Shown in pieces: positions 28,581 to 56,069 of a stretch of DNA of 64,000 nucleotides. This DNA comes from an uncultured Alphaproteobacteria bacterium (GTDB lineage: Bacteria > Pseudomonadota > Alphaproteobacteria > Sphingomonadales > Sphingomonadaceae): contig CBIHKY010000009.1 of assembly GCA_966205705.1 (NCBI GenBank), forward strand, positions 401 to 64,400. The letters are read 5' to 3'. Within the stretch, counting starts at the first letter, position 1, and every line of letters starts with the position of its first letter. The notes beneath the pieces are model-generated. The model was not told where the DNA came from and did not search any database. It saw only the letters and a list, made by a program, of their open reading frames with translations. The position numbers and the translations under genes are program-made.

Positions 28581-28656
28581 GGGGCCGTAGCTCAGCTGGG
28601 AGAGCGCTACACTGGCAGTGTAGAGGTCAGGGGTTCGATCCCCCTCGGCTCCACCA
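28581..28656 (+). tRNA. tRNA-Ala (GGC)
   Basis: GGGGCCGTAGCTCAGCTGGGAGAGCGCTACACTGGCAGTGTAGAGGTCAGGGGTTCGATCCCCCTCGGCTCCACCA. Confidence 0.98.
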
Positions 28657-28960
28657 TTTTATGTTCTTGAAATTCGGTCATTTCATGTTCTTGCGCTCTG
28701 CAAGGTCATGGACCTCGGGACCGATGCACACGCATCAGCTCAGCCATCCCTAGGCATTAAGCTTCCGTCGCAGCTATGAAATCCTTGAGATTTTCAGGTC
28801 TTAGGTGCTTATAGTTCGCTCCGGTTCCGCCGCCGTCTGAGACGTGACCAGCCGCTGCGTGCGCCGGAGTGGGCAATCGCCAATAAGCGAGGATTCGGGT
28901 CGTCGGGTATTGAGCGGCGCGGCTCGCGGGGCTTGATAGGAACTCGACGCGGCTCGCGCC

Positions 28961-31900
28961 TTAGTGGTCGAAAGGTGCTGCCTTCTCAGTAGCCGTATGG
29001 GAAAGGTTTTGGTGGCGGCTTGTGCGTCGGCGCTCGATGGTGCGTGAAACCCGGTCCCCCAACATTCGGCAGGCAACGTAGAAGACCGGCGCAAAGATCA
29101 GGCCGAGCAGGGTGAGGCCAATCATCCCGTAAAACACCGCCGTCCCCAGCGCCTGCCGCAATTCCGCGCCTGCTCCGGTTGCGAAGGCAAGCGGCACGAC
29201 GCCTGCAATGAAGGCCAGAGAGGTCATGAGGATCGGGCGTAAGCGGATGCGCGCCGCCATGATCGCGGCTTCCTTTGTGGAAAGGCCATCTTCCTCGGCC
29301 TGGCGGGCGAACTCGACGATAAGGATGGCATTTTTGGCGGCAAGGCCGACCAGAACGACCATGCCGATCTGCGTGAGGATATTATTGTCTGCGCCGCGCA
29401 GATTCACGCCGAGAATGGCGGAGAGCAGGCAGAGCGGGATGACCATGATGATCGCAAGCGGCAGTGTGAGGCTTTCGTAAAAGGCCGCAAGTGCGATGAA
29501 GACGAAGATGATCGCCAGCCCGAACGCAAGCTCGCCGCTGCCGCCCGCGACCCGCTGCTGATAGGCAAGGTCCGTCCACTCGACGGCAAAGCCCGCGGGC
29601 AGGCGCTCTGCGGCAATCCGCTCCATCGCTTCCATTGCCTCGCCGGAGGAATAACCGGGCGCGGCCTCGCCCTGAATGTCCGTCGATGGATAGAGATTGT
29701 AGCGCAGCACGCGATAAGGCCCGGTCGATGGCGTCAGCTTGGCGACGGCATCAAGCGGAACCATCGTGCCGGATGCCGAGCGGGTTTTGATCTGCCCGAG
29801 CAGGCCAGCATCCTGCCGATAGGCGGGGTCAGCCTGCGCAATCACCTGGAAGCTATGGCCGAGCAGGGTCATATTGTTCACGTAAGAGCCCGCCATATAG
29901 GTCTGGAGCGCGGCATAAACATCCTGACTTTCAACACCCAGCATCTCGGCCTTGTCGCGATCCACTTCCACCGCGATGCGCGGACTGCGCATGTTGAAAT
30001 TGGTGAAGCTCTGGGCGATTGCCGGATCCTCGGCGGCAGCCGTTGCAAGATCGCGCGTTACTTCATCCAGCGCTGCATAGCCATGGCCGCCACGATCCTC
30101 CACCATCAGGCGGAAGCCGCCGGCCGTGCCAAGGCCGCGCACAGGCGGAGGCATGATCAGGCGAATGTCCGCCTCGGTCATGCCTGAGAAGCGCTTGCGC
30201 AGATCGGCGACGATGACGTCCGCTGTCAATCCCTTGGGCAACCGCTCGCTAAACGGCTCCATGATCGCATAAAGCTGCCCGGCGCTGGACTGGACGGACA
30301 TGCCCATCGCATCTACGCCTGCATAGACGGAGGCGGCCTGAACGCCAGGCGTCTCCAGCATGACGTCGATGGCCTGCCGCACGACGGCATCGGTGCGGGC
30401 GAGGCTTGCGCCGGTCGGCAGGTTGATCGCGACGACGGCAAGGCTCTGATCCTGCTGCGGCACGAAACCGCGCGGCGTATCGTAGAGCCGCCAGCCCGTG
30501 AGCAGCAGCAGGCCCACATAGAGGATGAAGACGAGGCCCATCGAGCGCAGAAGGCGTCTCGTGAGCCTGCCATAGCTTTCGCCGAAGCGATCGAACATCG
30601 TCGTGAAGCGCTCGCCGCCGCGGTGCAGCCAGCGCATAATGGCGGTGCGCGGCGGGGCGCCGCCATGCTGGCGCAGCAGCAGCGCGCACAAGGCTGGCGA
30701 AAGGGTGAGGGAGACGATGAGGGAGATGACGGTGGCTGCGGTCACAGTCTGCGCGAACTGCGTGGAGAATGGCCGCGTCACGCCGCCCATGAGGGCCGTG
30801 GGCACAAAAACGGCGACCAGCACCAGCGCAATGCCGATGAGGGCGCCGCCCACCTCATTCATGGTTCGATAGGCCGCCTCGCGCGGCGCAACGCCTGCGC
30901 GAATATGGCGCTCGGCATTTTCCACCACGACGATGGCATCATCCACCACGATGCCGATGGAGAGCACCAGCCCGAACAGCGAGAGATTGTTAAGCGAGAA
31001 ACCCGCCGTCGCCATGACAGCGAAGGTGCCGACCAGCGAGATGGGGATAGCCAACAACGGGATGATCGCGGTGCGCCAGCTTTGCAGGAACAATATGACG
31101 ACGATGACGACGAGAATGACCGCCTCGATCATCGTGTCGCGCAGCTTGTCCACGGAATCGCTGATATATTGGCTGGGGTTGAACACGATCCGGTAGGAGA
31201 CGCCGGGCGGGAAACTCTTGGAGAGCTCCTTCATCGTTTCGCGAACCGCGTTGGCCGTCTGGAGGGCATTGCCGCCCGATGCTTGCGCGACGCTCAGCGG
31301 ATAGGCTTCTTCCTGATCAAGATAGGCATTGATCGAATAAGTCTGTGCGCCAAGCTCCACCCGCGCGATATCGCCAATGCGCGTGACACGCCCCTGTGCA
31401 TCGCGTTTGACGATGACCTGCTCGAACTCTTTGGGCTGGTTCAGCTTGCTCTGAACATCCAGATTATATTGCGTCGGGCCAGGCTTCTGGCTCATTTGCG
31501 CGCCGCCGACCGTGCCGGCTGCCAGCTGGATGTTATTGCCGCGCAGCGCCGCCAATATCTCCTGCACAGTCAGGTTGCGCGCGGCTGCCTTGTCCGGGTC
31601 GATCCAGATGCGCATGGCATAATCGCGCGCGGCGAAGGTGCCGACATCGCCCACGCCGGGCAGCCGCAACAGCCGCTCGCGCACCTGCATGGAGGCATAG
31701 TTGGCGAGATATTCGCGATCGACATTGGGCGATGTCGACAGCATGTGGACGATCATCAGCGTGTCGTTCTGCGCTTTGCGCACGGTGACGCCGAGCGTCT
31801 GCACTTCCTGCGGCAGTTGGGGCAGGGCGGTCTGCACGCGGTTTTGCACCTGCACCTGCGCCAGATCAGGATCGGTGCCGATCTGGAAGCTGATGTTGAT

Positions 31901-32194
31901 CGTCACGCGGCCATCGGCAATCGCGGTGGAGCTCACATAGAGCGTATTGTCCACGCCATTGATCTGCTGCTCCAGTGGCGCCGCCACGGTATCCGCCATC
32001 ACCTCGGCAGAGGCGCCGGGGAAAACCGCCGTGACGCTGACGACCGGCGGGGATATCTTGGGATATTGATCGACCGGCAATTGCCAATAGCTGATCATGC
32101 CGACGAGCAGGATGAACAGCGACAAGGCGCAGGCGAAAATGGGCCGCGCGATGAAGAAGTGCGAGAAGCTCATCCGCGCATTGGCGGCGCTCAT
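28961..32194 (-). CDS. RND efflux permease (HAE1/AcrB family)
   Basis: FFI.RPIFA, LP..QYP.I.PP, GIVVDDAIVVVEN, RLRPILMTSLAF; start 32194 or 32173. Confidence 0.96.
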   Translation of the reverse strand: MSAANARMSFSHFFIARPIFACALSLFILLVGMISYWQLPVDQYPKISPPVVSVTAVFPGASAEVMADTVAAPLEQQINGVDNTLYVSSTAIADGRVTINISFQIGTDPDLAQVQVQNRVQTALPQLPQEVQTLGVTVRKAQNDTLMIVHMLSTSPNVDREYLANYASMQVRERLLRLPGVGDVGTFAARDYAMRIWIDPDKAAARNLTVQEILAALRGNNIQLAAGTVGGAQMSQKPGPTQYNLDVQSKLNQPKEFEQVIVKRDAQGRVTRIGDIARVELGAQTYSINAYLDQEEAYPLSVAQASGGNALQTANAVRETMKELSKSFPPGVSYRIVFNPSQYISDSVDKLRDTMIEAVILVVIVVILFLQSWRTAIIPLLAIPISLVGTFAVMATAGFSLNNLSLFGLVLSIGIVVDDAIVVVENAERHIRAGVAPREAAYRTMNEVGGALIGIALVLVAVFVPTALMGGVTRPFSTQFAQTVTAATVISLIVSLTLSPALCALLLRQHGGAPPRTAIMRWLHRGGERFTTMFDRFGESYGRLTRRLLRSMGLVFILYVGLLLLTGWRLYDTPRGFVPQQDQSLAVVAINLPTGASLARTDAVVRQAIDVMLETPGVQAASVYAGVDAMGMSVQSSAGQLYAIMEPFSERLPKGLTADVIVADLRKRFSGMTEADIRLIMPPPVRGLGTAGGFRLMVEDRGGHGYAALDEVTRDLATAAAEDPAIAQSFTNFNMRSPRIAVEVDRDKAEMLGVESQDVYAALQTYMAGSYVNNMTLLGHSFQVIAQADPAYRQDAGLLGQIKTRSASGTMVPLDAVAKLTPSTGPYRVLRYNLYPSTDIQGEAAPGYSSGEAMEAMERIAAERLPAGFAVEWTDLAYQQRVAGGSGELAFGLAIIFVFIALAAFYESLTLPLAIIMVIPLCLLSAILGVNLRGADNNILTQIGMVVLVGLAAKNAILIVEFARQAEEDGLSTKEAAIMAARIRLRPILMTSLAFIAGVVPLAFATGAGAELRQALGTAVFYGMIGLTLLGLIFAPVFYVACRMLGDRVSRTIERRRTSRHQNLSHTATEKAAPFDH

Positions 32195-33375
32195 TGTGTT
32201 GCTCCCGGCGCGGGACGCTCAGGCTCGATCTTGCCGGGCGTGGCGACGACCTTCTGCCCCACGCGGGCGCGCTGCATGCCAGCGATGACGACCTGCTCGC
32301 CGGGCGCAAGGCCGCTGCGGATCACCCGCAGGCCGTCCGCCATATTCCCCGGTGCGACAATGCGCTGGGCGATCAGGCCATCCTTGCCGACGACGAACAC
32401 GGTCGGACGGGTCTGATCGACAATGATCGCTTTGTCCGGGATCAGCAGCGCCGGGCCAGGCGCGCCCAAAGTCCAGCGCATCCGCCCGAACATGCCGGAC
32501 GTGAGCAGGCCGGTCGGGTTCTGCACAAGCGCCTGCCCGCGGATCGTGCCGGAGCTTCGGTCGAGCGCATTATCCAGCATCTCGATTTGACCGGCCCAGT
32601 TGAACTCGGTTTCATCCTCAAGGCGGATCTGCACGACAGCGCCACTCTCGCGAGCCCGGCGGAACTGCAGGAAGGCCCGCTCCGGCGCATCGAACACGAA
32701 CCGCATGGGGTTCTGCGTCATGATGGTGGTGAGGAGGGTCTGCTCAGCAGAGACCAGATTGCCCGCCGCGAGCCTGCGATAGGACGCGCGTCCGCTCGCT
32801 GGCGCCGTGATGCGGGTGAAGGAGAGATCGAGCGATGCTGCCTGCGCAACGGCGCGTGCATTGGCGAGCTCAGCGGCGGCCTGCTCCCGATCGGCAAGGC
32901 GTGTATCGACCAAAGACTGACTTATGAAGCCATCCGCAATCAGGGCCGTTGCGCGCTTATACTCAGCCGAGGTTCTAGCGAGCGCCGCCTGCGCGCGGGC
33001 CACACCAGCGCGTGCCTGTGCCAGCTTGGCGGCAAAGGGGCGTTGATCGAGCGTGAAGAGCAATTGCCCGCGCATGACGGCTTGCCCATCCTTGAAATGG
33101 ACCGATTGCAGCATGCCTGAAACGCGCGGGCGCACATCGATGGCGTCCACCGCTTCAAACCGCCCAGCATAGTCCACCCAGTCCGCCACATCGCGGCTGA
33201 GTGGTTTAGCTACGATGACTTGCGGCGTGGGTAGTGGGGGCGGCGCTTTCTCGGAGCAGGCTGCCAATGCCCCAAATGCAACGGCAGCTAGAAGTTTTGC
33301 ATATGATCGATCCGTAGAGGGGAGCCAGAGAGCGGCAATTTTGCGGCCTCTAAAAGTCGAATGTCTCCCCCTCAT
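32191..33375 (-). CDS. RND periplasmic adaptor (membrane fusion protein)
   Basis: Lipobox LAAC, VRPRVSG, TRITAP.SG, GLAPGEQVV..G. Confidence 0.93.
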   Translation of the reverse strand: MRGRHSTFRGRKIAALWLPSTDRSYAKLLAAVAFGALAACSEKAPPPLPTPQVIVAKPLSRDVADWVDYAGRFEAVDAIDVRPRVSGMLQSVHFKDGQAVMRGQLLFTLDQRPFAAKLAQARAGVARAQAALARTSAEYKRATALIADGFISQSLVDTRLADREQAAAELANARAVAQAASLDLSFTRITAPASGRASYRRLAAGNLVSAEQTLLTTIMTQNPMRFVFDAPERAFLQFRRARESGAVVQIRLEDETEFNWAGQIEMLDNALDRSSGTIRGQALVQNPTGLLTSGMFGRMRWTLGAPGPALLIPDKAIIVDQTRPTVFVVGKDGLIAQRIVAPGNMADGLRVIRSGLAPGEQVVIAGMQRARVGQKVVATPGKIEPERPAPGATQ

Positions 33376-33475
33376 TCATCCATCCCCCTGCGCTAGACGC
33401 GATATTATCAGCGCTTATGCCCGCTCGTCGTAGCAGCACGTCATAGTGACGAAAGCAACTATTGGCCTGTGAATA

Positions 33476-33515
33476 AGGAAGCGCGGGATACGCATTTGCG
33501 TGATCCGCGCTTCCT
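33476..33515. terminator. Long hairpin downstream of the amidohydrolase gene
   Basis: aggaagcgcgg-ga-tacgca..tgcgtg-at-ccgcgcttcct. Confidence 0.65.
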
Positions 33516-33532
33516 CATGGCTTCAGCTGATG

Positions 33533-34612
33533 TCAGAGCTTGAAGAGCTGCTGCGCATTGGTGCCGAGGATCTTGTCCCGCTGCACGGGTGGCAATGCGC
33601 TCACGCGCGCCTTCACGCCGACCATATCCTGAATCGAGAAGGGATAATCCGAGCCATAAAGCACCCGGTCTTCGCCAACCTGCTTCACGAGAAATTCCAG
33701 CGTAGGCTGGTCATACACAATGGCATCATACCAGAATTTGCGGAAATAGGCGCTTGGTGGCTTGTTGACGAGGCGACGGCTGGTGGTGTTTTCCCACATC
33801 TTGTCCATGCGGGCGATGAGGTAAGGCAATGTGCCGCCACCATGACAGGCGATCAGCTTGAGCCCCTCAAACTTGTCCATGAAGCCGGTGAGGATGAAAC
33901 GCGCGTAAACGAGCGTCGTATCGCTGGTGAAGCCGATTGTGTTGGCGAGGCCGAAGGATTCGACACCCCATTTTTTGATGTCGACCATTGGCACAGTGGG
34001 GTGAATGAAGGCGGGCAGGCCGGATTCCTCAACAGCCTTCCACACCGGGTGGAAAAGCTCATTGTCCGGCAGCATACCGACCATGTTGGTGGTGAGGCAC
34101 AGGCCTGCTGCACCCATGCCCTGCACGCGCTTGAGCTCTTCGATCGCGGCATCGGGATATTGCCAGGGGAGCGAAGCCATCCACTTGATGCGACCGGGAT
34201 ATTTCCGCTCGGCGGCGGCAAAGTCGTCATTCACATTGCGGGCAGTCTCGATGGCGACCTCGCGCGTGCTCCAGAACACGTTCGGCGCGGTCAGGCTGAT
34301 GATCGCAACGTCGACTCCAGCCTTGTCCATCGCAGCGATGCGCATGTCGAGGTTCGTCATGTCCGGCGCCAACCGCACGATCGGGGCACCGCGATACTCG
34401 ATCGTCTCGTCGGGCTTGGTGGGGAGCAATTTCGTATCCGCATCGGGATGCTTGCGCAGCATCTCCACCCAGCGCGGCGTGAAGTTATGGGTGTGGACGT
34501 CGATGACCGGCACCTTGGATACGCCACGCTTCTGCGCGCCCGCACCCTGCGCCATCGCGGCGAGGCCAAGTCCCGCCGCGCCCATCAAAATATCTCTGCG
34601 TTCCAGATTCAT
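33533..34612 (-). CDS. Amidohydrolase_2 family enzyme (ACMSD-like) with twin-arginine leader
   Basis: IDVHTH, FIHP, HGGG.LP, YGSDYPF; N-terminus ERRDILMGAAGLGLAAMAQGAGA. Confidence 0.88.
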   Translation of the reverse strand: MNLERRDILMGAAGLGLAAMAQGAGAQKRGVSKVPVIDVHTHNFTPRWVEMLRKHPDADTKLLPTKPDETIEYRGAPIVRLAPDMTNLDMRIAAMDKAGVDVAIISLTAPNVFWSTREVAIETARNVNDDFAAAERKYPGRIKWMASLPWQYPDAAIEELKRVQGMGAAGLCLTTNMVGMLPDNELFHPVWKAVEESGLPAFIHPTVPMVDIKKWGVESFGLANTIGFTSDTTLVYARFILTGFMDKFEGLKLIACHGGGTLPYLIARMDKMWENTTSRRLVNKPPSAYFRKFWYDAIVYDQPTLEFLVKQVGEDRVLYGSDYPFSIQDMVGVKARVSALPPVQRDKILGTNAQQLFKL

Positions 34613-34626
34613 CGTCTCTCTCCTTC

Positions 34627-37600
34627 TCAGAATTTCATGCGCACACCGGCGCGGTAGCTGCGGCCGGTCTGGTCAAAGAAAATGGGGTTGGTCACGGAGT
34701 TGCCCGGCGCTATCGGCGGATCTGTGTTGAACAGATTGTTGATCGCGGCATAAACCTGCATGGTCGAACCGCTGGAGGCCGTAATCGTGTAGCGCAGCGC
34801 CAGATTGAAGGTCAGCATGTCCTGCACGACATTATTGTCGATGCTGTTCGCGAGCGTGTTGCGATAATTTGGATCGTCGGGGCCAATCAGGCTGCCGTCA
34901 TAGCTGCCCTTGGGGATATAATGCCCTTGCAAGGTCGCGCCGAGCGGCCCCTTCTCGAACGTGAATGTGCCGTCGATCGTATATTTAGGCACGCCCAGCG
35001 GACCGCCGACTTGCCGCCCCGTCTGGCCAGCCCGGTCGATCGCACCGGTCGCATCGACCTGAATGAGATCGAACACGCGCGTGGCCAGCAGGTTGATCGC
35101 GACGCGATTGTCCGCACCGAAGCGCCGGGAATAATCGAGCTCAAAGTCGATGCCGCGTGTCTTGATCTGCGTGACGTTGAGATATTGGTCCAACACTTCC
35201 GAGATGAGACCGGTCGAGGGGTCACGCGTGATGAGCGCGCAATAACTGGTGCCGCCCGCATTGCACCGATCCGTGATGACTTGTGCCCCGACGAGATCGA
35301 TGCCGTTCCTGATCTTGATGTCATAATAGTCGGCGGAGAAGCGCAGGCCGGGGACCATGCGCGGCTGGAGCACGACGCCCGCCGTATAGGTGTCCGCAAT
35401 TTCCGGCTGCAATGTCTCGACGCCGCCACGGAAGATGCGCGCAAGCACCTGACTGCTGTTCGACGTATCGAAGACCGCACCCTGCGTGCCAACGAGCGGC
35501 GTATAAAGCTCGGCAGCATTGGGCGCGCGAATGTCGCGTGACCGGGTGCCGCGAAAGCGCACGCCTTCGACCGGCTCATACATGCCGCCAAGCTTCCACG
35601 TGGTGACGGAACCGCTCGTGCTGTAATGGGTCCGCCGGACCGCGCCGTTAAATTCCAGCATCCGGACGCCCGGCAGATCGCGCAAGATTGGCACGACGGT
35701 TTCCGCATAGCCCTCGACGATGTTGATCGTCTTCGGGCCGAAGGATGAAGCATTGGAAGTGTAGAAGCCATTCGCCAGCGAGATGGGATCAGCGAGGCCA
35801 CTCACGCGCTCGCTGCGATATTCGCCGCCAAGTGCGATCGAGACCGGACCGGAACCGAAGTCCAGCACTTCGCCCGTCAGGTTGGCTGCGGCAACATGCT
35901 GCTGGAACTTGGTGCTCTGTTCGGACGTGCCGAATGTATAGGCTTTTGCCGCAGCCGAGAAACGATACTGACCGAACAGATTGAGCGGCTGGCAACCAGC
36001 GGCAGCCGCGCGCACCGCAGCGGACGGGTCAAGCGTCGTGCGGCAGACAATATTGCCATTCGCGACGCCTGTGCGAAACCGCCCTTCGTCAACAGCATCG
36101 AGCGCGCGCGTGAAGTTGGCGGTAATGCGATTGTTGGCGACGACCTGCGAGGTATTCGTCTGGCCGAACTGATAATAAGCATCGGCCTTCCAGCCACTGC
36201 CAAGGTCGGCATCGAAACCGCCAACGATGCGGAAGGTATTCGTAATGTTGGTGCCGATGGCGAGGCCAAGATCCTGCCCGACCCGACCGAAGGTGAGCGT
36301 TTGCGCATTGAGGGCCGTCATCTGGTTGACGATCGAGGTGGGGAGATAGGCATTGTCTCGCCGGATCACGAGGGCAGTATCGCGTGTCTGGGAGGCTGGC
36401 GTAATCACTTCCACCCGGCCATAGGACGCCTCGAGGAACGGCGTGACAGCGCCCAGATCATAGTCGGCGCGTCCATAGAGGGCATAGCGTTCGACCGGGA
36501 CTTTGAGCACGCCAGCCGAGCGAAACGCGTTCTGGCGGTGGCCGCTTCCCCCCTGCATGAACAGGGTGGCATATTGTCCGCGGACAAATGGCACCGGATT
36601 GCCGAAATCATCGAACTGCACATTGGCGAGCGCTGTCGGGGCGTTGATCTTACCGGCATAAGTCTGGGTGGCCGTATGCACATCGCTGCTGATGACCCGC
36701 GCTGCCTGGCCATTGGTCAAATAGCCGGGATTGCTGAGCACCTGCCATTCCTGCGCACACAGTTCATATTCATAGCAACCGCTCATGCCGCGATTCTTGT
36801 TATATTCGCCACCAATGATGACGTGACCGCGCCCATCCGCAAAAGCTGTGCCAGCGGCGGCGGCGAAGAGTTGATCGCTATCCTCCCCGCGCTGGGAAAT
36901 GCCCGCCTGCGCGTTGACGCGAAAGCCCTGCAGCTTCTTGTTGAGGATGAAGTTTACGACGCCCGCTACGGCATCCGAGCCATAAGCAGCCGAGGCACCG
37001 CCGGTTACCAGCTCGACCCGGTCGATGAGGATGCCGGGGATAAGATTGGTATCGACAGCGCCCGTGATTGTGCTCGGCACAAAGCGGCGGCCATCCACCA
37101 GCACGAGGGAACGTTGGGCGCCCAGCCCGCGAAGATCGACCGTGCGCGCACCACCTGCGCCAACGGTCACGCCTGATGTCGTCGGGGAGGTCGTAGCGCG
37201 GAAGGCTGGCAGCTGTGACAATGCCTCGCCAACACTTGACGCCGCCGTGTTTTCCAGCCGTTCGCTGCCAAGCTGCGTGACGGGGGTGGGCGCCGTGAAG
37301 CCGGAGCGGGCAATGCGCGATCCGGTGACGACGATTGCTTCATTCTCGACCGGCTCGGTGATGGGCGTCTCTTCGACGGCGGGCTGCTGTGCACTCGCCG
37401 TTGTAGCAGGGGCAATCTGGGCGGCGGCGGGGCGCGGCTCGATCCGCACGATGGTGAATCCGGCGCCCTGCTGGAGCGGTTGCAGCGGGGCATTGCCAAG
37501 CAGGCGTGCGAGCGCTTCATTGGGCTCATACTCGCCCTTCACCACGGCAGATGGGCCATAGCCCGTTGCCGATGCGGAAAAGACGATGGACGTGCCACTC

Positions 37601-37749
37601 TGCAGCCCGAAGGTCCGCAAGGCCGATGGCAGCGGCTGTGATGGAATGTCGAAATTGACCGGCTTGGCCTGTGCAGCCGAAGCAACGAGCGCTGATGCAG
37701 CAGCGCCGAGCAGAAACGCAGTGCGCGCGTTCAATCCACGAATGGACAT
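34627..37749 (-). CDS. TonB-dependent receptor with N-terminal STN signalling domain
   Basis: STN (FDIPSQPL..AL..F..QSG..I), IVVTGSRI TonB box, LVLVDGRR plug, C-terminal F. Confidence 0.95.
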   Translation of the reverse strand: MSIRGLNARTAFLLGAAASALVASAAQAKPVNFDIPSQPLPSALRTFGLQSGTSIVFSASATGYGPSAVVKGEYEPNEALARLLGNAPLQPLQQGAGFTIVRIEPRPAAAQIAPATTASAQQPAVEETPITEPVENEAIVVTGSRIARSGFTAPTPVTQLGSERLENTAASSVGEALSQLPAFRATTSPTTSGVTVGAGGARTVDLRGLGAQRSLVLVDGRRFVPSTITGAVDTNLIPGILIDRVELVTGGASAAYGSDAVAGVVNFILNKKLQGFRVNAQAGISQRGEDSDQLFAAAAGTAFADGRGHVIIGGEYNKNRGMSGCYEYELCAQEWQVLSNPGYLTNGQAARVISSDVHTATQTYAGKINAPTALANVQFDDFGNPVPFVRGQYATLFMQGGSGHRQNAFRSAGVLKVPVERYALYGRADYDLGAVTPFLEASYGRVEVITPASQTRDTALVIRRDNAYLPTSIVNQMTALNAQTLTFGRVGQDLGLAIGTNITNTFRIVGGFDADLGSGWKADAYYQFGQTNTSQVVANNRITANFTRALDAVDEGRFRTGVANGNIVCRTTLDPSAAVRAAAAGCQPLNLFGQYRFSAAAKAYTFGTSEQSTKFQQHVAAANLTGEVLDFGSGPVSIALGGEYRSERVSGLADPISLANGFYTSNASSFGPKTINIVEGYAETVVPILRDLPGVRMLEFNGAVRRTHYSTSGSVTTWKLGGMYEPVEGVRFRGTRSRDIRAPNAAELYTPLVGTQGAVFDTSNSSQVLARIFRGGVETLQPEIADTYTAGVVLQPRMVPGLRFSADYYDIKIRNGIDLVGAQVITDRCNAGGTSYCALITRDPSTGLISEVLDQYLNVTQIKTRGIDFELDYSRRFGADNRVAINLLATRVFDLIQVDATGAIDRAGQTGRQVGGPLGVPKYTIDGTFTFEKGPLGATLQGHYIPKGSYDGSLIGPDDPNYRNTLANSIDNNVVQDMLTFNLALRYTITASSGSTMQVYAAINNLFNTDPPIAPGNSVTNPIFFDQTGRSYRAGVRMKF

Positions 37750-37820
37750 GGAACCCCCTCCTAAATTTTTGATCTCTGTATTGGATGAGGCTGGTTCGTT
37801 GATTTACCTCAGTCCCAAGA

Positions 37821-38846
37821 TCAGATTTTTTTGCGGGCGACCTCCCGCAGTTCATAACCCTGGTTGGGAATGCGGCCCCAACGGGCGACGCCAATGGCAT
37901 CGACAGCGGAGAGGAAGGTGGTGACATCGCCTGCCTTCAACACGGCACTCATGCGTTTTTCGGCGACGGCGGGCGCGCTGATGACGATCTTGGTCGCGAG
38001 ATAGCGGTTCATCTCGGCCACAATGTCGCCAAGCCGCGCCTCGTCGAACACCAATATGCCATCGCGCCAACGCGACACGTCGCGCAGGTCGACAGGCGTG
38101 AGCGTCCAGTTTTCATCATTGGTCACAAATTTATAGCCGGGGCGCATGAACACCGTGGATGGAGACTTGGCCCCGGACTTGTTCGCCCGCACGACGACAT
38201 GCCCTTCCATCAGCGTGAGCTCGATGCCGTGCTCAGCGAGGTTTACGTCGAATTGCGTGCCAAGCGCCTTGATCGTTTGAGCGCCCGCCCGAACCAAAAA
38301 GGGGCGAGCGGCATCTTTGGCGACCGCAAAATTGGCGCGCCCTTTGAGCAGCTGTACATTGCGCATCGTCTCGCTCATCGATGCCTTGACCGCGCTGCTC
38401 GCGTCCAGAAACACCTTGCTGCCGTCTGGCAGGGTGACGGCGGACGCGCTGCCTTCCGGCGTTTCATAATAAGCGGTGATGACGGATGCTTCCGGCGCTG
38501 CGTCAAAGGGAGCAAGGCGGAGGATCGCGAACGTCGCAACAGTGCCGGTCAGCAACAGGGCGAAGGCTGCAGCAATTGCAATGCGCTGTCGCCTTGGCGA
38601 GGGTTGCCGTGCTGCGTCTCGCAGCGCCAATATCTCAGGATGAGATCGCAAACGATCGAGATCGACCAGGCGCGCATTGAGCGCGTCATAATCCCGGCGG
38701 TTATGTTCATCGCTCGCGAGCCACTGCTCCAGCGCTTCGACGGACGCGCGGGACATGGTTCCAGACCGTGCACGCGCAATCCATCCCGGAGCATCCTGGG
38801 GGAAGGGCGGTTCGGGTCTACGGACGAGGAAAGACAGGCGCTTCAT
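37821..38846 (-). CDS. fecR: FecR family anti-sigma factor
   Basis: WI.R......L..WLA.D..N, TM helix, LPDGS.V.LD..S, ALGT.F.V, WR.G.L.F. Confidence 0.93.
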   Translation of the reverse strand: MKRLSFLVRRPEPPFPQDAPGWIARARSGTMSRASVEALEQWLASDEHNRRDYDALNARLVDLDRLRSHPEILALRDAARQPSPRRQRIAIAAAFALLLTGTVATFAILRLAPFDAAPEASVITAYYETPEGSASAVTLPDGSKVFLDASSAVKASMSETMRNVQLLKGRANFAVAKDAARPFLVRAGAQTIKALGTQFDVNLAEHGIELTLMEGHVVVRANKSGAKSPSTVFMRPGYKFVTNDENWTLTPVDLRDVSRWRDGILVFDEARLGDIVAEMNRYLATKIVISAPAVAEKRMSAVLKAGDVTTFLSAVDAIGVARWGRIPNQGYELREVARKKI

Positions 38847-39343
38847 TCCCCGCCTCTCGCATTCTCATGCAGCGCTTTCAAAGCGAGCATGATGTGTTTT
38901 TCGACAGCGCTTGTCGAAATGCCCAGATGCGCTGCGATGCGTGGGTAAGTCATCTCCTCGAACCGGTGGAGGACGAACACCTGCTGCGTCCGGGGTGGCA
39001 ACAGCTTGATGATGGCAAGCGCAGCGTTGAGGCATTGCTGGCCGATCAGAATCCGTTCGGGCGAGAAGGGGTCGACCTGCTCGGGCACCTCGCCATCGGC
39101 ATAGGGCATTTGCGCATTTTTATGGTGTCGGCGCGCCAGCACATTGGATGCGATGGTGAAGAGATAGCCCTGCACATTCTCGATCTGCGTGTTTTTCCGG
39201 CGGCTGTGCAGATTAGCGAGCACCTCCTGCACAAGATCGTCCACCTCGCCGATGGGCACGCGCTTGGTGAAATAGCGCTGCAAGGCGCGGCTGTGCAGAG
39301 CGACGCGCTCATCCTCCAAAAAGGGCACAGACTTCTCCTGCAC
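38843..39343 (-). CDS. ECF sigma factor (FecI-like)
   Basis: DDLVQEV, YLF.IA.N, LPPRTQQVFVLHRFEEMTY..IA..LGIS.S.VEKHI; 4-nt overlap with fecR. Confidence 0.93.
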   Translation of the reverse strand: MQEKSVPFLEDERVALHSRALQRYFTKRVPIGEVDDLVQEVLANLHSRRKNTQIENVQGYLFTIASNVLARRHHKNAQMPYADGEVPEQVDPFSPERILIGQQCLNAALAIIKLLPPRTQQVFVLHRFEEMTYPRIAAHLGISTSAVEKHIMLALKALHENARGGE

Positions 39344-39457
39344 CTACGCCAACTCCGCCAGAGGTCACATCTTTCTGCTTCCTATGAGCGCGAAGTCGCA
39401 CGACCCCTCATCTGCCCTTTGAAAAAGACGTGTCGATCCGCGCTGGAAGGTGCGCTC

Positions 39458-40549
39458 TCACGCGCCGGGCAGGTGAAACAGCCGCGCCGCATTACCGTGG
39501 AACAGAGCAGCGCGCTCCGGAACGGAGAGCGGAGCCTCGTTCATGAATTTCACCGAGGGTTCCATTTCCTCATAGGGATAGTCGATCGCCCAAAGCACAT
39601 GGTCCGCGCCCAGCACATCGATCGCATAGCGCAGCGCCGGGGCGTGCTCGACGCCGCTGGTGGTGATGAAGACGTTGCGCTTCATCACTTCGGATGGCTT
39701 GAGCTTGGACCCGTATGCTTCCTTGCGCCGGTCATACCAATGGTCGCTCCGCCACAGGTGGAAGGGGATATTCTCGCCCATATGGCCGATCATGATCTTC
39801 AGATTGGGCAAGCGATCGAACACGCCGCTGAGGATCAGGCGCATGGCGTGCGTGCCGGTTTCCGCCGCATAACCCCAGATGGCAGATTGCAGCCGGTGGT
39901 CCCGGAAGGGCTCGGCCATGCCATCGGATGGGCAGCGCGGGTGAATGTAAATGGGGCGGTCGAGTGCGGCAGCTGCTTCCAATATGGGGAAGAATTTGGG
40001 GTCGTCCAGATACTCATTATTGGTGTGCGAGTTCACAATGAAGCCGCAAAAGCCAAGCTTGGTGACGGCGCGCTCCATCTCCTTGGCGGCACGAGCCGGG
40101 TCTTGCGGGGCGAAGCTTGCCAGCGCTGCAAAGCGACCGGGGTGGGCGCGGATAACCTCTGCCAGCCGGTCATTGGCGAGCTCCGCCAGCGCGACCGCGC
40201 GATCCGGCTTGAACAGTTGCACGCCGGGAGAGGTGAGCGACAATATTTGCATATCGATGCCCAGCCGGTCCATTTCAGCGAGGCGCTGCTGAACATCGCG
40301 CAGACGCGTGCTCAACCGGTCCGTGCTGCGCGAACCCAGCGGATTGAGGACTTGCGCATCGAGATTGGGCCAGTTGCCATCGGCCAGCGCAGCCATCGCA
40401 TCGAGATGCTCGGGGATCGTCCAGGCCTCTTCCACGGCGATCCGTCGCATCTTCATGCTGGCGCGTTGAGCGTTGACTGCCGCCGGTGCGGCAAGCGCTC
40501 CCGCTGCCGCGACACCGCCGATCAAAACCTGTCGCCGATCTACTTCCAT
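39458..40549 (-). CDS. LigW-like aromatic acid decarboxylase (amidohydrolase_2) with twin-arginine leader
   Basis: RIAVEEA, LSLTSPGVQ, FAPQDP, NSHTN, YIHPR, AIWGY..ET, GHMGE, TTSGVE, WAIDYPY follow the 5-carboxyvanillate decarboxylase LigW pattern; leader DRRQVLIGG; GAGGAG RBS. Confidence 0.85.
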   Translation of the reverse strand: MEVDRRQVLIGGVAAAGALAAPAAVNAQRASMKMRRIAVEEAWTIPEHLDAMAALADGNWPNLDAQVLNPLGSRSTDRLSTRLRDVQQRLAEMDRLGIDMQILSLTSPGVQLFKPDRAVALAELANDRLAEVIRAHPGRFAALASFAPQDPARAAKEMERAVTKLGFCGFIVNSHTNNEYLDDPKFFPILEAAAALDRPIYIHPRCPSDGMAEPFRDHRLQSAIWGYAAETGTHAMRLILSGVFDRLPNLKIMIGHMGENIPFHLWRSDHWYDRRKEAYGSKLKPSEVMKRNVFITTSGVEHAPALRYAIDVLGADHVLWAIDYPYEEMEPSVKFMNEAPLSVPERAALFHGNAARLFHLPGA

Positions 40550-40615
40550 TGCGCCCTCCTCAGTCGCTGCGCCTGTGCCAGCCTTGTTTCCAGAGCAGGC
40601 TAAGAAATCGCCAAT

Positions 40616-40676
40616 TGTTGTCAATAGCAACATTTCCGCTATGCGGAATTAAACCCCAGAAAACTGGAATCAGTTT
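40616..40676. promoter_or_regulatory. Palindromes in an AT-rich divergent promoter region
   Basis: TGTTG-N7-CAACA (40616-40632), TTCCGC-tat-GCGGAA (40634-40648), AAACTG-N4-CAGTTT (40661-40676). Confidence 0.45.
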
Positions 40677-40752
40677 GACAGGTTGGCATTAATATAATCA
40701 TCATACCATTATAAATTCGCAGTAGCGCATATTTACTGGGGGAGGCAAATCA

Positions 40753-43164
40753 ATGAAAAACCGTGCTTATGCATTCTTGTCTGTCGGCGTTGCCAGCATC
40801 GCGCTCATGGGCTTCTTCCCCACTTCCGCTCAGGCGCAGAACGTATCCGAGTCGCAAAGTGAGAGCGCTGCAACATCCCAAGCCGTTGACAGTGACATCA
40901 TTGTAACTGCGCAATTCCGCCGTCAGCGCCTTCAGGATGCCCCGCTCGCGATCACGGCAGTCTCCGGCGAGATGCTTGAGGCGCGCAGCCAGACGAGCAT
41001 TGCCGATGTTGCGGCGCAGGCGCCCAACGTCAATCTGCGGGAAGCGCCTGCGACCTTCGGTCCTTCAATCCAGGCCTTCATCCGTGGCGTCGGCCAGAGC
41101 GATTCAACCTTCGCGCTCGAGCCGGGTGTCGGCCTCTATGTGGATGATGTCTATTACTCCACGCTGCAGGGCTCGATGCTCGATCTGCTCGACCTCGACC
41201 GGGTCGAGATCCTGCGCGGTCCGCAAGGCACGCTGGCGGGGCAGAACTCCATTGGCGGTGCGATCAAGATCTACTCCAAAAAGCCGGATGGCTCTGGGGG
41301 CGGTTATGTGCAGGCCACTTATGGCCGCTTCAACCGCACGGAGTTTCGTGGGGGTGTCAATCTCACGCTTCTCCCCGAGCAGCTCTTCCTGCGGCTCTCC
41401 GGCGCTGGCGTGAAGAAGGATGGCTATGTCACCCGCTATGATTATCGCTGCACCCACCCCAACTCGCCGGTGCGCGGCTTTGCCGTGTCGGACAATTGCA
41501 AGCTGGGGACAGAGGGCGGTAAATCCTATGTCGCGGGCCGGGCATCGCTGCGCTGGGTGCCGACCGATGCGCTCGAAGTCTCGATCATCGGTGACATTAC
41601 GCGCGATGACAGCGAGGCATCTCCCTCGACCCTGCTCTATGTCGGTACGCTCACTGGCGCAGGATCATCGCCAACCGCGCCCTATGTGATCGACGGTGTT
41701 CCGCTCGGCACGGCAGCCGGATCGCCCTTTATCAGCTATTCGCCATATGGCAATTTTGCACAGGATAGCTTCTCCAAAAGTCCGTTCATCAGCTATGAAA
41801 ATTACCAGAATTATGCGCCGCGCGACGGCACCGCGCCCTATTCCGCCCCGGCGCGCAGTTCGCTGGATACGTGGGGCGTTTCCGGGCAGGCAACGCTCAA
41901 GCTGAGTGAAGCGCTGTCGCTCACCTCGATCACATCCTACCGCAAATATAACGCCATCTTTACGTCGGCAGAGTCCTCGCCCGTCAACACGGCGCTGACG
42001 GCCAATGATGTGAATCATCGCCAGTTCAGCCAGGAATTGCGGTTCAGCGGATCGGTCGGCACATTGCTCGATTTCACGGTGGGCGGCTATTATTTCAAGG
42101 CGACCAGCGATGGCGGATCGCGCGTGCAATTGCCGACGCTGGAATTCCGCCAGAATGACCATGTGGAATCCAAGACCAAAGCCGCCTTCGCTAATGCCGA
42201 GTTGCATGTGACGAGCAAGCTCTCGCTGATCGGCGGTCTTCGCTACACGGATATCAGCAAGAGCTTCCAGTATGCGCGCAAGGGCAATCCCGGCAGCATC
42301 TTTGGCGGCGCACCGCCGCCATCGCTCGCGCCCCTCGATGGGCTGGTCCGCACCTTCGCGGGCGATCAGCTCGATTATCGCGCCGCGATCCAATATCGCT
42401 GGACGCCTGACTTCATGACCTATGGGCAGATTGCGACCGGCTTCAAGAGCGGCGGGTCCAATCCACGGCCCTTCTTTCCCGCACAGGCGCTCACACATGG
42501 GCCAGAGACGCTGACGGCCTATGAACTCGGCTTTAAGAGCGACCTGTTCGATCGGCTGCTGCGCCTGAACGTTTCTGCATTTTATAATAAATATAATGAC
42601 ATATTGGTGAGCGTGGCGACTTGCCCGACAGTCCCTGCCACACCCTGCTCGCTACCGCTCAATGCAGGCAAAGCCAATCTGAAGGGCTTTGAGGTTGAGA
42701 CGACATTGCGCCCCGTTCGTGGCCTGCTGATCGATGCATCATTGGGCTATCTCGATTTCGAGTATGAATCGATCTCGCCTCTCGGCGCGAGCGCTGGCAT
42801 CACATTGGGGATGCAGGCGCCCTTCGTGCAAAAGTGGCGCTGGAGCATCGGTGCACAATATGAGGTTGATCTGGGCGGCGCGGGCACATTGACCCCGCGC
42901 GTCGATGTCAATTCGCAGAGCGATTATTTCAACACGGCCGTCAATCGCCCGCCTTTCAACGTCGTGCCGGGGCGCACGGTGGTGAATGCCCGGCTGACCT
43001 ATCGCGATCCATCGCAGGATTGGCAGATTGCGCTGGAGGTCACTAACCTGACGGATCGCCTTTATTATGATGGCATCTTCGATAATCGCGGGTCGACCCA
43101 GGCCATTCAGGCGCGCCCCGCCCGCCCGCGTGAATGGGCCGTAACGCTCAAGCGGAACTTCTAA
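40753..43164 (+). CDS. TonB-dependent receptor
   Basis: Signal peptide, IIVTAQ.R.Q.LQD.PLAIT, VEILRGPQGTL.G.NS.GGAI, C-terminal F. Confidence 0.95.
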   Translation: MKNRAYAFLSVGVASIALMGFFPTSAQAQNVSESQSESAATSQAVDSDIIVTAQFRRQRLQDAPLAITAVSGEMLEARSQTSIADVAAQAPNVNLREAPATFGPSIQAFIRGVGQSDSTFALEPGVGLYVDDVYYSTLQGSMLDLLDLDRVEILRGPQGTLAGQNSIGGAIKIYSKKPDGSGGGYVQATYGRFNRTEFRGGVNLTLLPEQLFLRLSGAGVKKDGYVTRYDYRCTHPNSPVRGFAVSDNCKLGTEGGKSYVAGRASLRWVPTDALEVSIIGDITRDDSEASPSTLLYVGTLTGAGSSPTAPYVIDGVPLGTAAGSPFISYSPYGNFAQDSFSKSPFISYENYQNYAPRDGTAPYSAPARSSLDTWGVSGQATLKLSEALSLTSITSYRKYNAIFTSAESSPVNTALTANDVNHRQFSQELRFSGSVGTLLDFTVGGYYFKATSDGGSRVQLPTLEFRQNDHVESKTKAAFANAELHVTSKLSLIGGLRYTDISKSFQYARKGNPGSIFGGAPPPSLAPLDGLVRTFAGDQLDYRAAIQYRWTPDFMTYGQIATGFKSGGSNPRPFFPAQALTHGPETLTAYELGFKSDLFDRLLRLNVSAFYNKYNDILVSVATCPTVPATPCSLPLNAGKANLKGFEVETTLRPVRGLLIDASLGYLDFEYESISPLGASAGITLGMQAPFVQKWRWSIGAQYEVDLGGAGTLTPRVDVNSQSDYFNTAVNRPPFNVVPGRTVVNARLTYRDPSQDWQIALEVTNLTDRLYYDGIFDNRGSTQAIQARPARPREWAVTLKRNF

Positions 43165-43301
43165 AGCTAGAGCCAACGCGATTGCCGACAAGGAGCTGCA
43201 TTTTCGACTGAGGAATCTGCTAATTTGTGATGTGATTGAGTGGAGGCAAGTGTCGCCGCTCATCAATCGACAACGTCATTCTAAGCTGTGAATGATCCCG
43301 C

Positions 43302-44087
43302 CTATTGCCCCGCCAATGGTCCGGTCGGCGGGGCTGGGAAGTCGAGTGGTGCAATTGCTGCGCCGGGATAGCCCTGAACGGCGGCCTCATAAATTTCAAC
43401 GCCGAGCGGACTGTAAGCAATCAGGCTCATGGCAATCTGCGCGGCTGTGATTGCGCCTATCCCCCACAGCCAGCCACGGTGAACCGTCCCATGCCGACGG
43501 CGATCAGCCAAGGCTCCGATGACGGGCCAGATCATCACCGCTGCAAAGACGGCCCATCCGGCGTGCGGGATCATAAGGGGGAGGGGGAGCAGTCTTCCGA
43601 ACGCGGGGCCGGTGAGAACGGCCATCCCACAATAAAGCAGTCGCCGATGCCAAGCGGTGTGCCGGCGCAACATGATCGCGGCGGCGGTCAACGCTCCAAA
43701 GCACAGTATGGAGAGCGCATTCATCACAAGAAAATAGGCGGGTTCGAAAAAGAACGGGCTCGTGCCGCGGCGCACTGTCGCGACGGTTGTGTAAATGCCG
43801 AGGATCACAACGCCCAACGCCCATCCGCAACTGAGCCAGCCAAGTTTGCGATGCAGCGTCATCGATCCGCGCGTGACGAGGATATTTTGAGCGACATAAA
43901 GCGCGACCCAGCCGAAGAAGACCAGGGCATGGAGATGTACAAGGGGTGGCGCGGCGAAAGTGGATCGGCCCATCGCCAATTGAAACGAAAAGCCCGCGAC
44001 GATGGTTAGCGCCATCGCGAGGGCCATCTTCAGAAAGAAGCGGTCGTCTCGGCCATAACCTGGCTGTGCTGCGGCATGCGTTGCCAT
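43302..44087 (-). CDS. Multi-pass membrane protein of unknown function
   Basis: About 7 hydrophobic segments; H-x-H (VHLHA), HRKLG and HRRL motifs. Confidence 0.75.
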   Translation of the reverse strand: MATHAAAQPGYGRDDRFFLKMALAMALTIVAGFSFQLAMGRSTFAAPPLVHLHALVFFGWVALYVAQNILVTRGSMTLHRKLGWLSCGWALGVVILGIYTTVATVRRGTSPFFFEPAYFLVMNALSILCFGALTAAAIMLRRHTAWHRRLLYCGMAVLTGPAFGRLLPLPLMIPHAGWAVFAAVMIWPVIGALADRRRHGTVHRGWLWGIGAITAAQIAMSLIAYSPLGVEIYEAAVQGYPGAAIAPLDFPAPPTGPLAGQ

Positions 44088-46403: not shown

Positions 46404-46577
46404 TGATCGTCTCCTGCTGTGCACCTGTTTCGCGTCAGCATATGGGGCTTGAAGAGCGCGTTTCGCAAGGGTGAGCGGAATTCTTTGGGGGAGGGCGCAA
46501 AAGGGGCTTGTCGACCTAGAAAGGCGGTGCTAGTTGCGCGCCTCACCTGATCGGGACCAACATCCTGATCCGCCCGA

Positions 46578-46652
46578 GCGGGCGTAGCTCAGTGGTAGAG
46601 CACAACCTTGCCAAGGTTGGGGTCGAGGGTTCGAATCCCTTCGCCCGCTCCA
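46578..46652 (+). tRNA. tRNA-Gly (GCC)
   Basis: GCGGGCGTAGCTCAGTGGTAGAGCACAACCTTGCCAAGGTTGGGGTCGAGGGTTCGAATCCCTTCGCCCGCTCCA. Confidence 0.98.
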
Positions 46653-47115
46653 GTTTTTCCAAGAAAAACAATTGACTTAGTGTCATTCCCCATGCGGGGG
46701 TGGCAAGCGCTAACATGCTACTAGCACGCAGCGTTACGGGAATGATCGGGCGCGACGCGACCCGACCGACTTCTTCCATGAGGTCGTCCAGCGCCTCACG
46801 CGCTTTGCCGAGATAGTCCGGGGCATACTTCGCGCAGCGCCCGATTGTCCTGAAGTTCGGCGTGGAATGACCCAGCATCCCGGCAATCTCCAATTCAGGC
46901 ACTCCGCGTGAGCGTAGCTCGGTCGCGACGGTATGACGGATCGAATAGGGCACCACTTCGGCGTCAAGGCCAGCCGCATCCCGGATCGTCCGCCATGTCT
47001 TGTTGATCTTTTGAACCGGTTTCCCGTGCCAGTGGACGAGCGGCCCGGTCGCCGCTCAATGGGACTGGGAAATCAGGCGTCGGCACCACGGGGCGGCGCT
47101 TCTTCGTCTGCGCAG
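46653..47115 (-). pseudogene. Tyrosine recombinase (integrase) C-terminal remnant
   Basis: QTKKRRPVVP in one frame, then after a frameshift/TGA AATGPLVHWHGKPV..INKTW...YSIRHTVATEL..GV....IAGMLGH; N-terminus missing; RCAKY at the position where the nucleophile Tyr (RYA) is expected. Confidence 0.85.
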
Positions 47116-56003: not shown

Positions 56004-56050
56004 GATGGTCCCCTACATGCAAATTGACGTAATCAAGGCGCTCCGCTAAC

Positions 56051-56069
56051 GCCAATGATTATCAATAAC
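56051..56069. promoter_or_regulatory. Fur-like box between divergent iron genes
   Basis: GCCAATGATTATCAATAAC matches 14/19 of the E. coli consensus GATAATGATAATCATTATC. Confidence 0.55.

Follow-up and report, generated by a model that had tools for sequence, protein, structure and literature searches.

Introduction

Systems in which an extracytoplasmic function (ECF) sigma factor, a FecR-type regulator and a TonB-dependent receptor act together classically serve iron carriers (review PMC9249621), and the FecR protein of Escherichia coli undergoes self-cleavage at G181/T182 and is inserted into the membrane by twin-arginine translocation (Tat) (PMC12036975). In Sphingobium SYK-6, DdvT of the ddv locus is a TonB-dependent receptor dedicated to the lignin-derived biphenyl DDVA, an aromatic acid, and the ddv pathway yields 5-carboxyvanillate, the substrate of the decarboxylase LigW. 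We know of no characterised decarboxylase of the LigW/ACMSD clade that is not cytoplasmic. Here we describe a locus (positions 28657-44087) within a 64,000-nt stretch of DNA, referred to below as the window (GCA_966205705.1, contig CBIHKY010000009.1, positions 401-64,400), in which a LigW-like enzyme and a second amidohydrolase (AH2), both carrying predicted Tat leaders, adjoin two TonB-dependent receptors, a sigma/FecR pair and genes for an efflux pump of the resistance-nodulation-division (RND) type.

The locus is a mosaic of three adjoining, separately transcribed units, and a single operon is excluded. Module A consists of the LigW-like enzyme and an 803-aa receptor, module B of the sigma factor, FecR, a 1040-aa receptor and AH2, and module C of the RND permease and adaptor (Table 1). 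We lean towards the reading that the locus serves the iron-independent uptake and periplasmic, decarboxylase-type processing of hydroxy-aromatic carboxylic acids from plants or lignin. A substrate of plant origin fits the source of the sequence, a root metagenome, as well as the partial matches obtained from leaf-litter, soil and rhizosphere metagenomes.

Results

Two amidohydrolases with conserved twin-arginine leaders

The open reading frame (ORF) of the LigW-like enzyme extends over 39458-40633, and homology backs a start at MEVDRRQVL (40549), which is likely to be the true one. The leader that follows from this start (DRRQVLIGG...VNA-Q) contains a twin arginine, a hydrophobic stretch and an AxA site, and its DRR is retained in every signal-bearing homologue, down to about 55% identity; distant homologues from Chloroflexi, Variovorax and others (at most 46% identity) have no leader and begin at the catalytic core. 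Residues E40, H203, D323, Y326, H256 and R267 correspond to LigW Glu19, His188, Asp314, Tyr317, His241 and Arg252, whose roles, including those of Glu19, His188 and Asp314 as metal ligands or general acid, have been described (PMC8187880 and PMC6031855). All six were invariant in the alignment, and the position of Phe212 is occupied by tyrosine, as in SYK-6 LigW. The same genome encodes separate LigW homologues without a signal on C42 and C163.

The second enzyme, AH2, carries the leader ERRDILMG...AGA-Q, and its best solved relatives are LigW (4e-33) and ACMSD (6e-32). The HxH/H/H/D set typical of ACMSD (H40, H42, H204, H257 and D322) was invariant in 20 homologues down to 51% identity, and so were R5 and R6 of the leader. 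An arginine occupies the position equivalent to ACMSD Arg47, at which the homologues vary. Since even these relatives are remote (E about 1e-32), the chemistry of AH2 is less certain than that of the LigW-like enzyme. TatC is encoded in the genome, on C70, and from the conservation of the arginines we take both twin-arginine leaders, which the preliminary description of this locus had already proposed, to be real; both enzymes are very probably periplasmic. The Tat pathway suits enzymes that are folded and loaded with Mn in the cytoplasm before export, as is the case for the Tat substrate MncA.

The best-surviving alternative concerns AH2 alone and regards it as a periplasmic hydrolase, hydratase or lactonase similar to LigY, LigJ or LigI, which would open or deconjugate the imported compound. 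C-C hydrolases, hydratases and lactonases do belong to Amidohydro_2, AH2 itself matches LigY (7e-11) and LigJ (1e-4), one Tat-bearing homologue is encoded directly after a periplasmic pyrroloquinoline quinone (PQQ)/cytochrome c dehydrogenase, and signal-less homologues follow an amino-acid-type ABC transporter. However, decarboxylases (LigW, ACMSD, gamma-resorcylate and isoorotate) lead the matches by over 20 orders of magnitude, and the ACMSD-type metal-site set is invariant, so that we regard this alternative as rather unlikely, and a decarboxylase-type activity remains the reading we prefer for AH2.

Several relatives of the two enzymes were recorded along the way. The closest signal-less LigW homologue of the genome (C42:5984-7021; 55% identity to the Tat-bearing enzyme) has one in-frame TGA in the matched stretch and may be a pseudogene or an alignment overrun. 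The congener G011 has five LigW-family paralogues within 10 kb (C17:263804-273171), two or three of which align from query residues 1-10, which suggests that these carry leaders. At L041 (6213-11074) genes for a major facilitator superfamily (MFS) transporter, a PQQ/cytochrome c quinohaemoprotein dehydrogenase and a Tat-bearing AH2 homologue are read in one direction, which could mean that an oxidation in the periplasm precedes an AH2-type step. In Variovorax (L096, 5990-10975) genes for an amino-acid-type ABC transporter (SBP_bac_3, two permeases and an ATPase) precede that of a signal-less AH2 homologue (42% identity), which ends the series.

The Tat-bearing LigW-like enzyme is paired with a TonB-dependent receptor

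Orthologues of the 803-aa receptor (about 1470-1490 bits) were found divergent from the LigW-like gene in four other loci (L013, L015, L016 and L021), and the closest orthologues of the LigW-like enzyme (79-85% identity) always have an orthologous receptor of some 800 aa encoded divergently beside them. When a wider set of homologues was examined, a receptor lay within 3 kb of 11 of the 12 Tat-bearing LigW-like genes (leaders curated by hand) versus 8 of the 40 signal-less LigW homologues; for AH2 homologues, the corresponding counts were 10/25 with a Tat leader and 5/56 without, and the statistics of all these counts ignore relatedness. In the unbiased sample of the order taken by itself, three of the four Tat-bearing LigW-like genes had a receptor within 1.1 kb.

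In the orthologous loci, genes for a TauD-family protein, a thiamine pyrophosphate (TPP) enzyme and an MFS transporter come after the receptor gene, and the LigW-like gene has an IclR gene downstream of it. For the TauD protein, the nearest relative is the aryloxyalkanoate dioxygenase RdpA (E 1e-69); the TPP enzyme, a member of PRK06154, is most similar to glyoxylate carboligase. The complete set of receptor, MFS importer, catabolic enzymes and regulator is together in L013, L015 and L021 and scattered in the genome of the window, where orthologues of TauD (83%) and MFS (84-88%) are found with an IclR-like gene on C105 and the TPP enzyme (65%) on C196. The divergent promoter region of module A contains a palindrome of the pattern TTCCG-N5-CGGAA, which is probably an IclR-type operator. 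Another copy, flanked by the same ATTCCA-N15, is found at C105:9062, where it separates the IclR-like gene from the TauD-MFS orthologues. Because the putative operator is conserved in four genomes and duplicated beside the IclR-like gene, module A is most likely an IclR regulon.

Module B has the features of a self-contained sigma regulon

The preliminary description had assigned a cell-surface signalling architecture to module B, and domains of the sigma factor, FecR and receptor were all matched. In FecR, an arginine pair (RR85-86) stands directly before the single membrane helix and GT occurs at positions 196-197 within the FecR domain, both read from the sequence; they parallel the Tat-dependent insertion and the self-cleavage site of the E. 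coli protein. The Pfam STN match of the 1040-aa receptor was weak and below threshold (E 0.065). Residues 14-121 nevertheless match the solved signalling domains of FpvA (E 6.9e-9), FoxA, FemA, HasR, CntO, PupA, PupB and FecA, and because of these matches the receptor can be classed as a transducer, as had been proposed.

The motif TGAGG-N17-CTCAT occurs exactly twice in the 64-kb window, where 0.2 copies are expected: once before the sigma gene and once before the gene of the 1040-aa receptor. Both sites are present in B7D2B; in SYK-6 the motif is found before the sigma gene, and the receptor site has one mismatch. The motif was not found before the LigW-like gene, the 803-aa receptor gene or the RND genes. 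The more stringent sigma motif GCYTCA failed to pick up the sigma promoter and was rejected in favour of TGAGG-N17-CTCAT. The copy before the sigma gene makes autoregulation of the sigma factor possible, and, from the distribution of the motif, module B most likely forms a sigma regulon of its own. The string of sigma factor, FecR, receptor of about 1040 aa and AH2 is the same in SYK-6 (SLG_28810-28840) and B7D2B, with AH2 identities of 87% and 94%, respectively. The SYK-6 receptor orthologue was identified as SLG_28830 through the TonB-box string that Fujita et al. 2019 give in their supplement; the literature searched does not mention SLG_28810-28840.

Transcription units and re-association of the modules

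All nine predicted genes of the preliminary description were confirmed at the same coordinates. That description had read the minus-strand genes as one run; taken as one operon, the run has to be given up, since it comprises at least four transcription units. Overlaps of 4 bp join sigma to fecR and adaptor to permease, and the receptor and AH2 genes are spaced by 14 bp. The 114-bp gap between the LigW-like and sigma genes can be aligned with the sequence upstream of sigma in genomes whose corresponding site lacks a LigW-like gene, and therefore the sigma gene has its own promoter. At the other end of module B, the hairpin 3' of AH2 is probably a terminator or attenuator that divides the module from the RND genes; AH2 is likewise trailed by hairpins at the module end in SYK-6 and B7D2B, and that of B7D2B has a T-run. 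The idea that the sigma factor governs the whole system did not survive these results, as its motif stands only before the sigma gene and the receptor-AH2 pair, module A has an operator of its own and an IclR gene elsewhere, and the hairpin splits off the RND genes.

The gene neighbourhoods speak to whether the modules belong together. Modules A and B are apart in B7D2B, and in SYK-6 module B stands alone at its site. In the metagenome-assembled genome (MAG) mb.88, one contig has an AH2 orthologue (81%) directly after the MFS gene of a LigW-like/receptor operon of module A. On another mb.88 contig (L020), orthologues of the permease (87%), adaptor (74%), receptor (73%) and AH2 (69%) adjoin, with the pump genes inverted, the receptor lacking a signalling domain and two further Tat-bearing LigW-like genes following. 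These genes thus co-occur elsewhere, as the check on neighbourhood conservation that the preliminary description proposed had called for, because the orthologues re-associate on two mb.88 contigs, and their re-association in other orders supports a functional link between the modules. In addition, clusters that combine two or three LigW-family genes with an AH2-type gene and a same-clade receptor occur in four Sphingomonadaceae genomes (L023, L025, L027 and L028). Of the single integrated utilization system proposed earlier, the conserved receptor/enzyme pairing and the mb.88 re-association hold up; sigma control of all genes does not.

These observations also bear on the possibility that the three units are incidental neighbours in a variable region, serving unrelated substrates, with the RND proteins forming a general multidrug pump. 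This would be in keeping with the separate promoters, the separate operator and the hairpin, with the arrangements in B7D2B and SYK-6, and with the permease score just under the multidrug cut-off of NF000282 (1249.2 vs 1250), as well as with the search of 36 congeners and of 400 genomes sampled from the order, which yielded no close orthologue of the LigW-like enzyme (>55% identity). Yet the same families come together in two further, differently ordered arrangements in mb.88, and AH2-type genes cluster with receptor and LigW-family genes in the four Sphingomonadaceae genomes; we therefore hold a purely incidental association to be unlikely, and a functional link remains our preferred reading of the neighbourhood.

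The locus lacks the Fur sites found at other sigma/FecR pairs

A Fur matrix was built from five published SYK-6 Fur boxes. Genome-wide, its top scores (19.4-21.2 bits) fell at C36:24236, C73:16703 and C111:8862, which are three other sigma/FecR pairs and thus served as a positive control. In module B, the best scores were 0.5 bits in the gap upstream of the sigma gene, which bears out the absence of a Fur-like box noted before that gene in the preliminary description, and 3.5 bits in the FecR-receptor gap. The classical E. coli Fur consensus gave a best match in the locus with 6 mismatches in 19 positions. A 12.3-bit matrix match at 40613 was set aside as background, since the 64-kb window contains four strand-specific matches of at least 12.3 bits at three sites.

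A last explanation is that the signalling receptor imports an Fe(III)-salicylate- or catecholate-type acid, that AH2, the LigW-like enzyme or both destroy the chelating group and thereby free the iron, and that the RND pump expels the spent ligand, much as PvdRT-OpmQ recycles pyoverdine. Although it can draw on the classical role of the FecI/FecR/receptor architecture (PMC9249621), on the binding of substrate by enzymes of the family through the metal-chelating hydroxyl/carboxylate pair (PMC8187880), on the proposal of protocatechuate as a possible siderophore in the SYK-6 iron paper and on the uptake of plant catechols by Pseudomonas receptors (PMC9426570), we consider it improbable, chiefly because of the internal Fur control described above and also because no iron ABC importer, reductase or Feo gene was found in or beside any copy of the modules, while SLG_28830 is not among the five receptors in the siderophore/haem clades of the SYK-6 iron study's tree and module A is accompanied by catabolic genes and an IclR regulator.

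Two Fur-like sites were noted apart from the locus. The top matrix match of the window (15.4 bits) is the near-palindrome AACGCCAATGATTATCAAT at 56048-56066, and it may mark an iron-regulated gene outside this locus. In SYK-6, the gap between the sigma gene and the divergent receptor gene SLG_28800 contains a moderate Fur-like site (L018 5054-5072; 15.6 bits); it is about 86 bp away from the start of SLG_28800, against 237 bp for the sigma gene, and is more likely to be a site of SLG_28800.

The RND genes and the borders of the locus

Module C encodes a permease and an adaptor, and no gene for an outer-membrane factor was found either in the stretch 28657-28960 or in the rest of the locus. Alignment of the adaptor upstream region with its counterpart in L020 revealed no shared promoter signal. 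At the other end of the locus, the 261-aa membrane ORF, which had been counted as part of the system, was dropped: homologues (40-71% identity) occur in 16 of 22 congeners, so that it is widespread in the genus, and the five loci examined had no shared neighbours and thus no conserved linkage.

The locus begins at the base following tRNA-Ala(GGC) (28581-28656), which lies 304 bp past the 3' end of the permease gene. A clean insertion beside tRNA-Ala could not be demonstrated, as a tRNA-Gly/thioredoxin/Lon-N block is kept in four congeners and the opposite side is non-syntenic. A 137-aa ORF (46543-46956) that weakly resembles a phage integrase (E 0.004) overlaps tRNA-Gly(GCC) (46578-46652) on the other strand and is probably spurious or an integrase remnant next to the tRNA.

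Table 1. Features of the locus, with positions given in the window
Feature	Position	Strand	Evidence
RND (HAE1-type) efflux permease, 1077 aa	28961..32194	-	ACR_tran E=0; TIGR00915 1055 bits vs cut-off 940
RND periplasmic adaptor (lipoprotein)	32191..33375	-	TIGR01730 260 bits vs cut-off 95
Hairpin 3' of AH2	33474..33519	-	-38 kcal/mol, z = -6.65; 0/200 shuffles fold equally well
AH2, ACMSD/LigW-clade Amidohydro_2, 359 aa	33533..34612 (leader, aa 1-26, 34535-34612)	-	PF04909 E 1e-32
TonB-dependent transducer, 1040 aa	34627..37749	-	Plug, barrel; signalling domain about aa 29-105 (37435-37665); TonB box EAIVVTGSR (37315-37341)
CTGAGG-N17-CTCAT, putative sigma-dependent promoter of receptor-AH2 unit	37785..37812	-	36-62 bp before receptor start
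FecR-type anti-sigma/sigma regulator, 341 aa	37821..38846	-	FecR E 5e-19, DUF4880, FecR_C
ECF sigma factor, 166 aa	38843..39343	-	Sigma70_r4_2 7e-16, Sigma70_r2 7e-5; TIGR02937 61.6 bits vs cut-off 42.9
TGAGG-N17-CTCAT copy before sigma gene, putative promoter	39384..39410	-	41-67 bp before sigma start
LigW-like decarboxylase, Tat-signal, Amidohydro_2, 363 aa	39458..40549 (leader, aa 1-29, 40463-40549)	-	E 9e-99 to SYK-6 LigW 4icm
Palindrome TTCCGCTATGCGGAA in divergent promoter region, putative operator	40634..40648	.	Kept in four orthologous intergenic regions
TonB-dependent receptor, 803 aa, without signalling domain	40753..43164	+	Plug and barrel domains
Polytopic membrane ORF, 261 aa	43302..44087	-	No Pfam or NCBIfam match

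Discussion

Taken together, the results can be accommodated in a model in which the three modules act side by side. In module A, the 803-aa receptor would import a compound, and the LigW-like enzyme, exported by Tat in folded form and probably already loaded with Mn, would strip a ring carboxyl adjacent to a hydroxyl in the periplasm; both genes would be driven from the divergent promoter with its palindromic, probably IclR-type operator, and the remainder of the regulon would comprise, on C105, the MFS importer and an ether-cleaving dioxygenase similar to RdpA and, on C196, the TPP enzyme. In module B, the ligand-bound 1040-aa receptor would signal through its N-terminal domain to FecR, which would free the ECF sigma factor to transcribe its own operon and the receptor-AH2 operon, and the Tat-exported AH2 would convert the imported compound in the periplasm. 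The RND pump of module C may then clear a membrane-active product or surplus substrate from the periplasm.

Some findings weigh against this model. The joint action of modules A and B is not obligatory, because B7D2B carries the two at separate places and SYK-6 has module B by itself at its site. The 17 SYK-6 receptors whose expression rose 2-fold or more with the lignin-derived aromatics tested do not include SLG_28830, the relatives of AH2 occur in mixed contexts (a signal-less Variovorax protein after an ABC transporter and one Tat-bearing protein after a periplasmic PQQ dehydrogenase), neither an inner-membrane importer nor an outer-membrane factor was found in the locus, and the Fur matrix derives from only five sites.

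More broadly, we tentatively propose that the locus belongs to an undescribed periplasmic branch of aromatic-acid metabolism in sphingomonads and some other Proteobacteria, in which Mn-loaded, Tat-exported decarboxylases of the LigW/ACMSD type, associated one-to-one with TonB-dependent receptors, would decarboxylate imported polycarboxylated aromatics from plants or lignin before their uptake across the inner membrane; one Sphingobium pair would be under a non-iron signalling circuit, the first for an aromatic nutrient. This wider proposal is held with less confidence than the reading of the locus itself, and a periplasmic LigW-type enzyme was not described in the literature searched. If it is true, models of the catabolism of lignin-derived and plant aromatics would gain a periplasmic step, dozens of orphan receptors in sphingomonads would be accounted for, a candidate non-iron cell-surface signalling system with a findable ligand would be at hand, and the receptor, sensor and pump could become parts for engineering the uptake of, and tolerance to, aromatic mixtures. 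SYK-6 has the same four genes, is genetically tractable and is employed in lignin valorisation, and the prediction is directly testable there.

Comparison with known systems

Each component family is already known, as are, in principle, receptor-centred catabolic loci and non-iron signalling receptors. What is new would be an exported LigW/ACMSD branch coupled to receptors and, in Sphingobium, its regulation through a signalling circuit that has no Fur site. Like FecI/FecR/FecA of E. coli and FpvA/FpvR/PvdS-FpvI of Pseudomonas, module B has a sigma factor translationally coupled to a FecR-type regulator with one helix, the arginine pair and GT, together with a receptor whose N-terminal signalling domain is accompanied by a TonB box; unlike them, it has no Fur site, and its receptor shares a predicted transcript with a Tat-bearing amidohydrolase in place of iron-transport genes. 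The pyoverdine cycle (FpvA, periplasmic iron release and PvdRT-OpmQ) likewise combines a signalling receptor, a periplasmic step and an efflux pump, but here the RND-type pump comes without an outer-membrane factor gene, an iron-regulation site or an iron importer. Compared with tripartite RND pumps in general, the locus supplies permease and adaptor only, the outer-membrane factor not being co-encoded.

The ddv locus of SYK-6 shares with module A the linkage of a sphingomonad TonB-dependent receptor to catabolic genes. However, DdvT is under a MarR regulator and the pathway enzymes are all cytoplasmic, whereas here the receptor-adjacent enzyme is predicted to be exported and one of the receptors is a signalling transducer; measured against a receptor-centred catabolic locus of the ddvT type, the window also has no inner-membrane importer, the MFS, TauD-like and IclR-like genes being on C105 and the TPP gene on C196. 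The LigW-like enzyme keeps the metal ligands, general acid and pocket residues of LigW and LigW2 (4ICM, 4QRN and 4QS5), and differs from them in its conserved 29-aa twin-arginine leader, in its pairing with a TonB-dependent receptor where LigW works within a cytoplasmic pathway, and in having neighbours that are not lig genes. AH2 resembles the ACMSD, isoorotate and gamma-resorcylate decarboxylases in fold and in the HxH, H, H and D residues, but is distant from them, carries a Tat leader and is linked to a receptor. In overall logic, the proposed system comes close to the polysaccharide utilisation loci of Bacteroidetes (ECF sigma/anti-sigma/SusC), in which a transporter senses a non-iron nutrient that is imported and processed in the periplasm; those loci belong to another phylum and use another type of receptor, and the present one has no SusD and carries decarboxylase-type enzymes in place of glycoside hydrolases.

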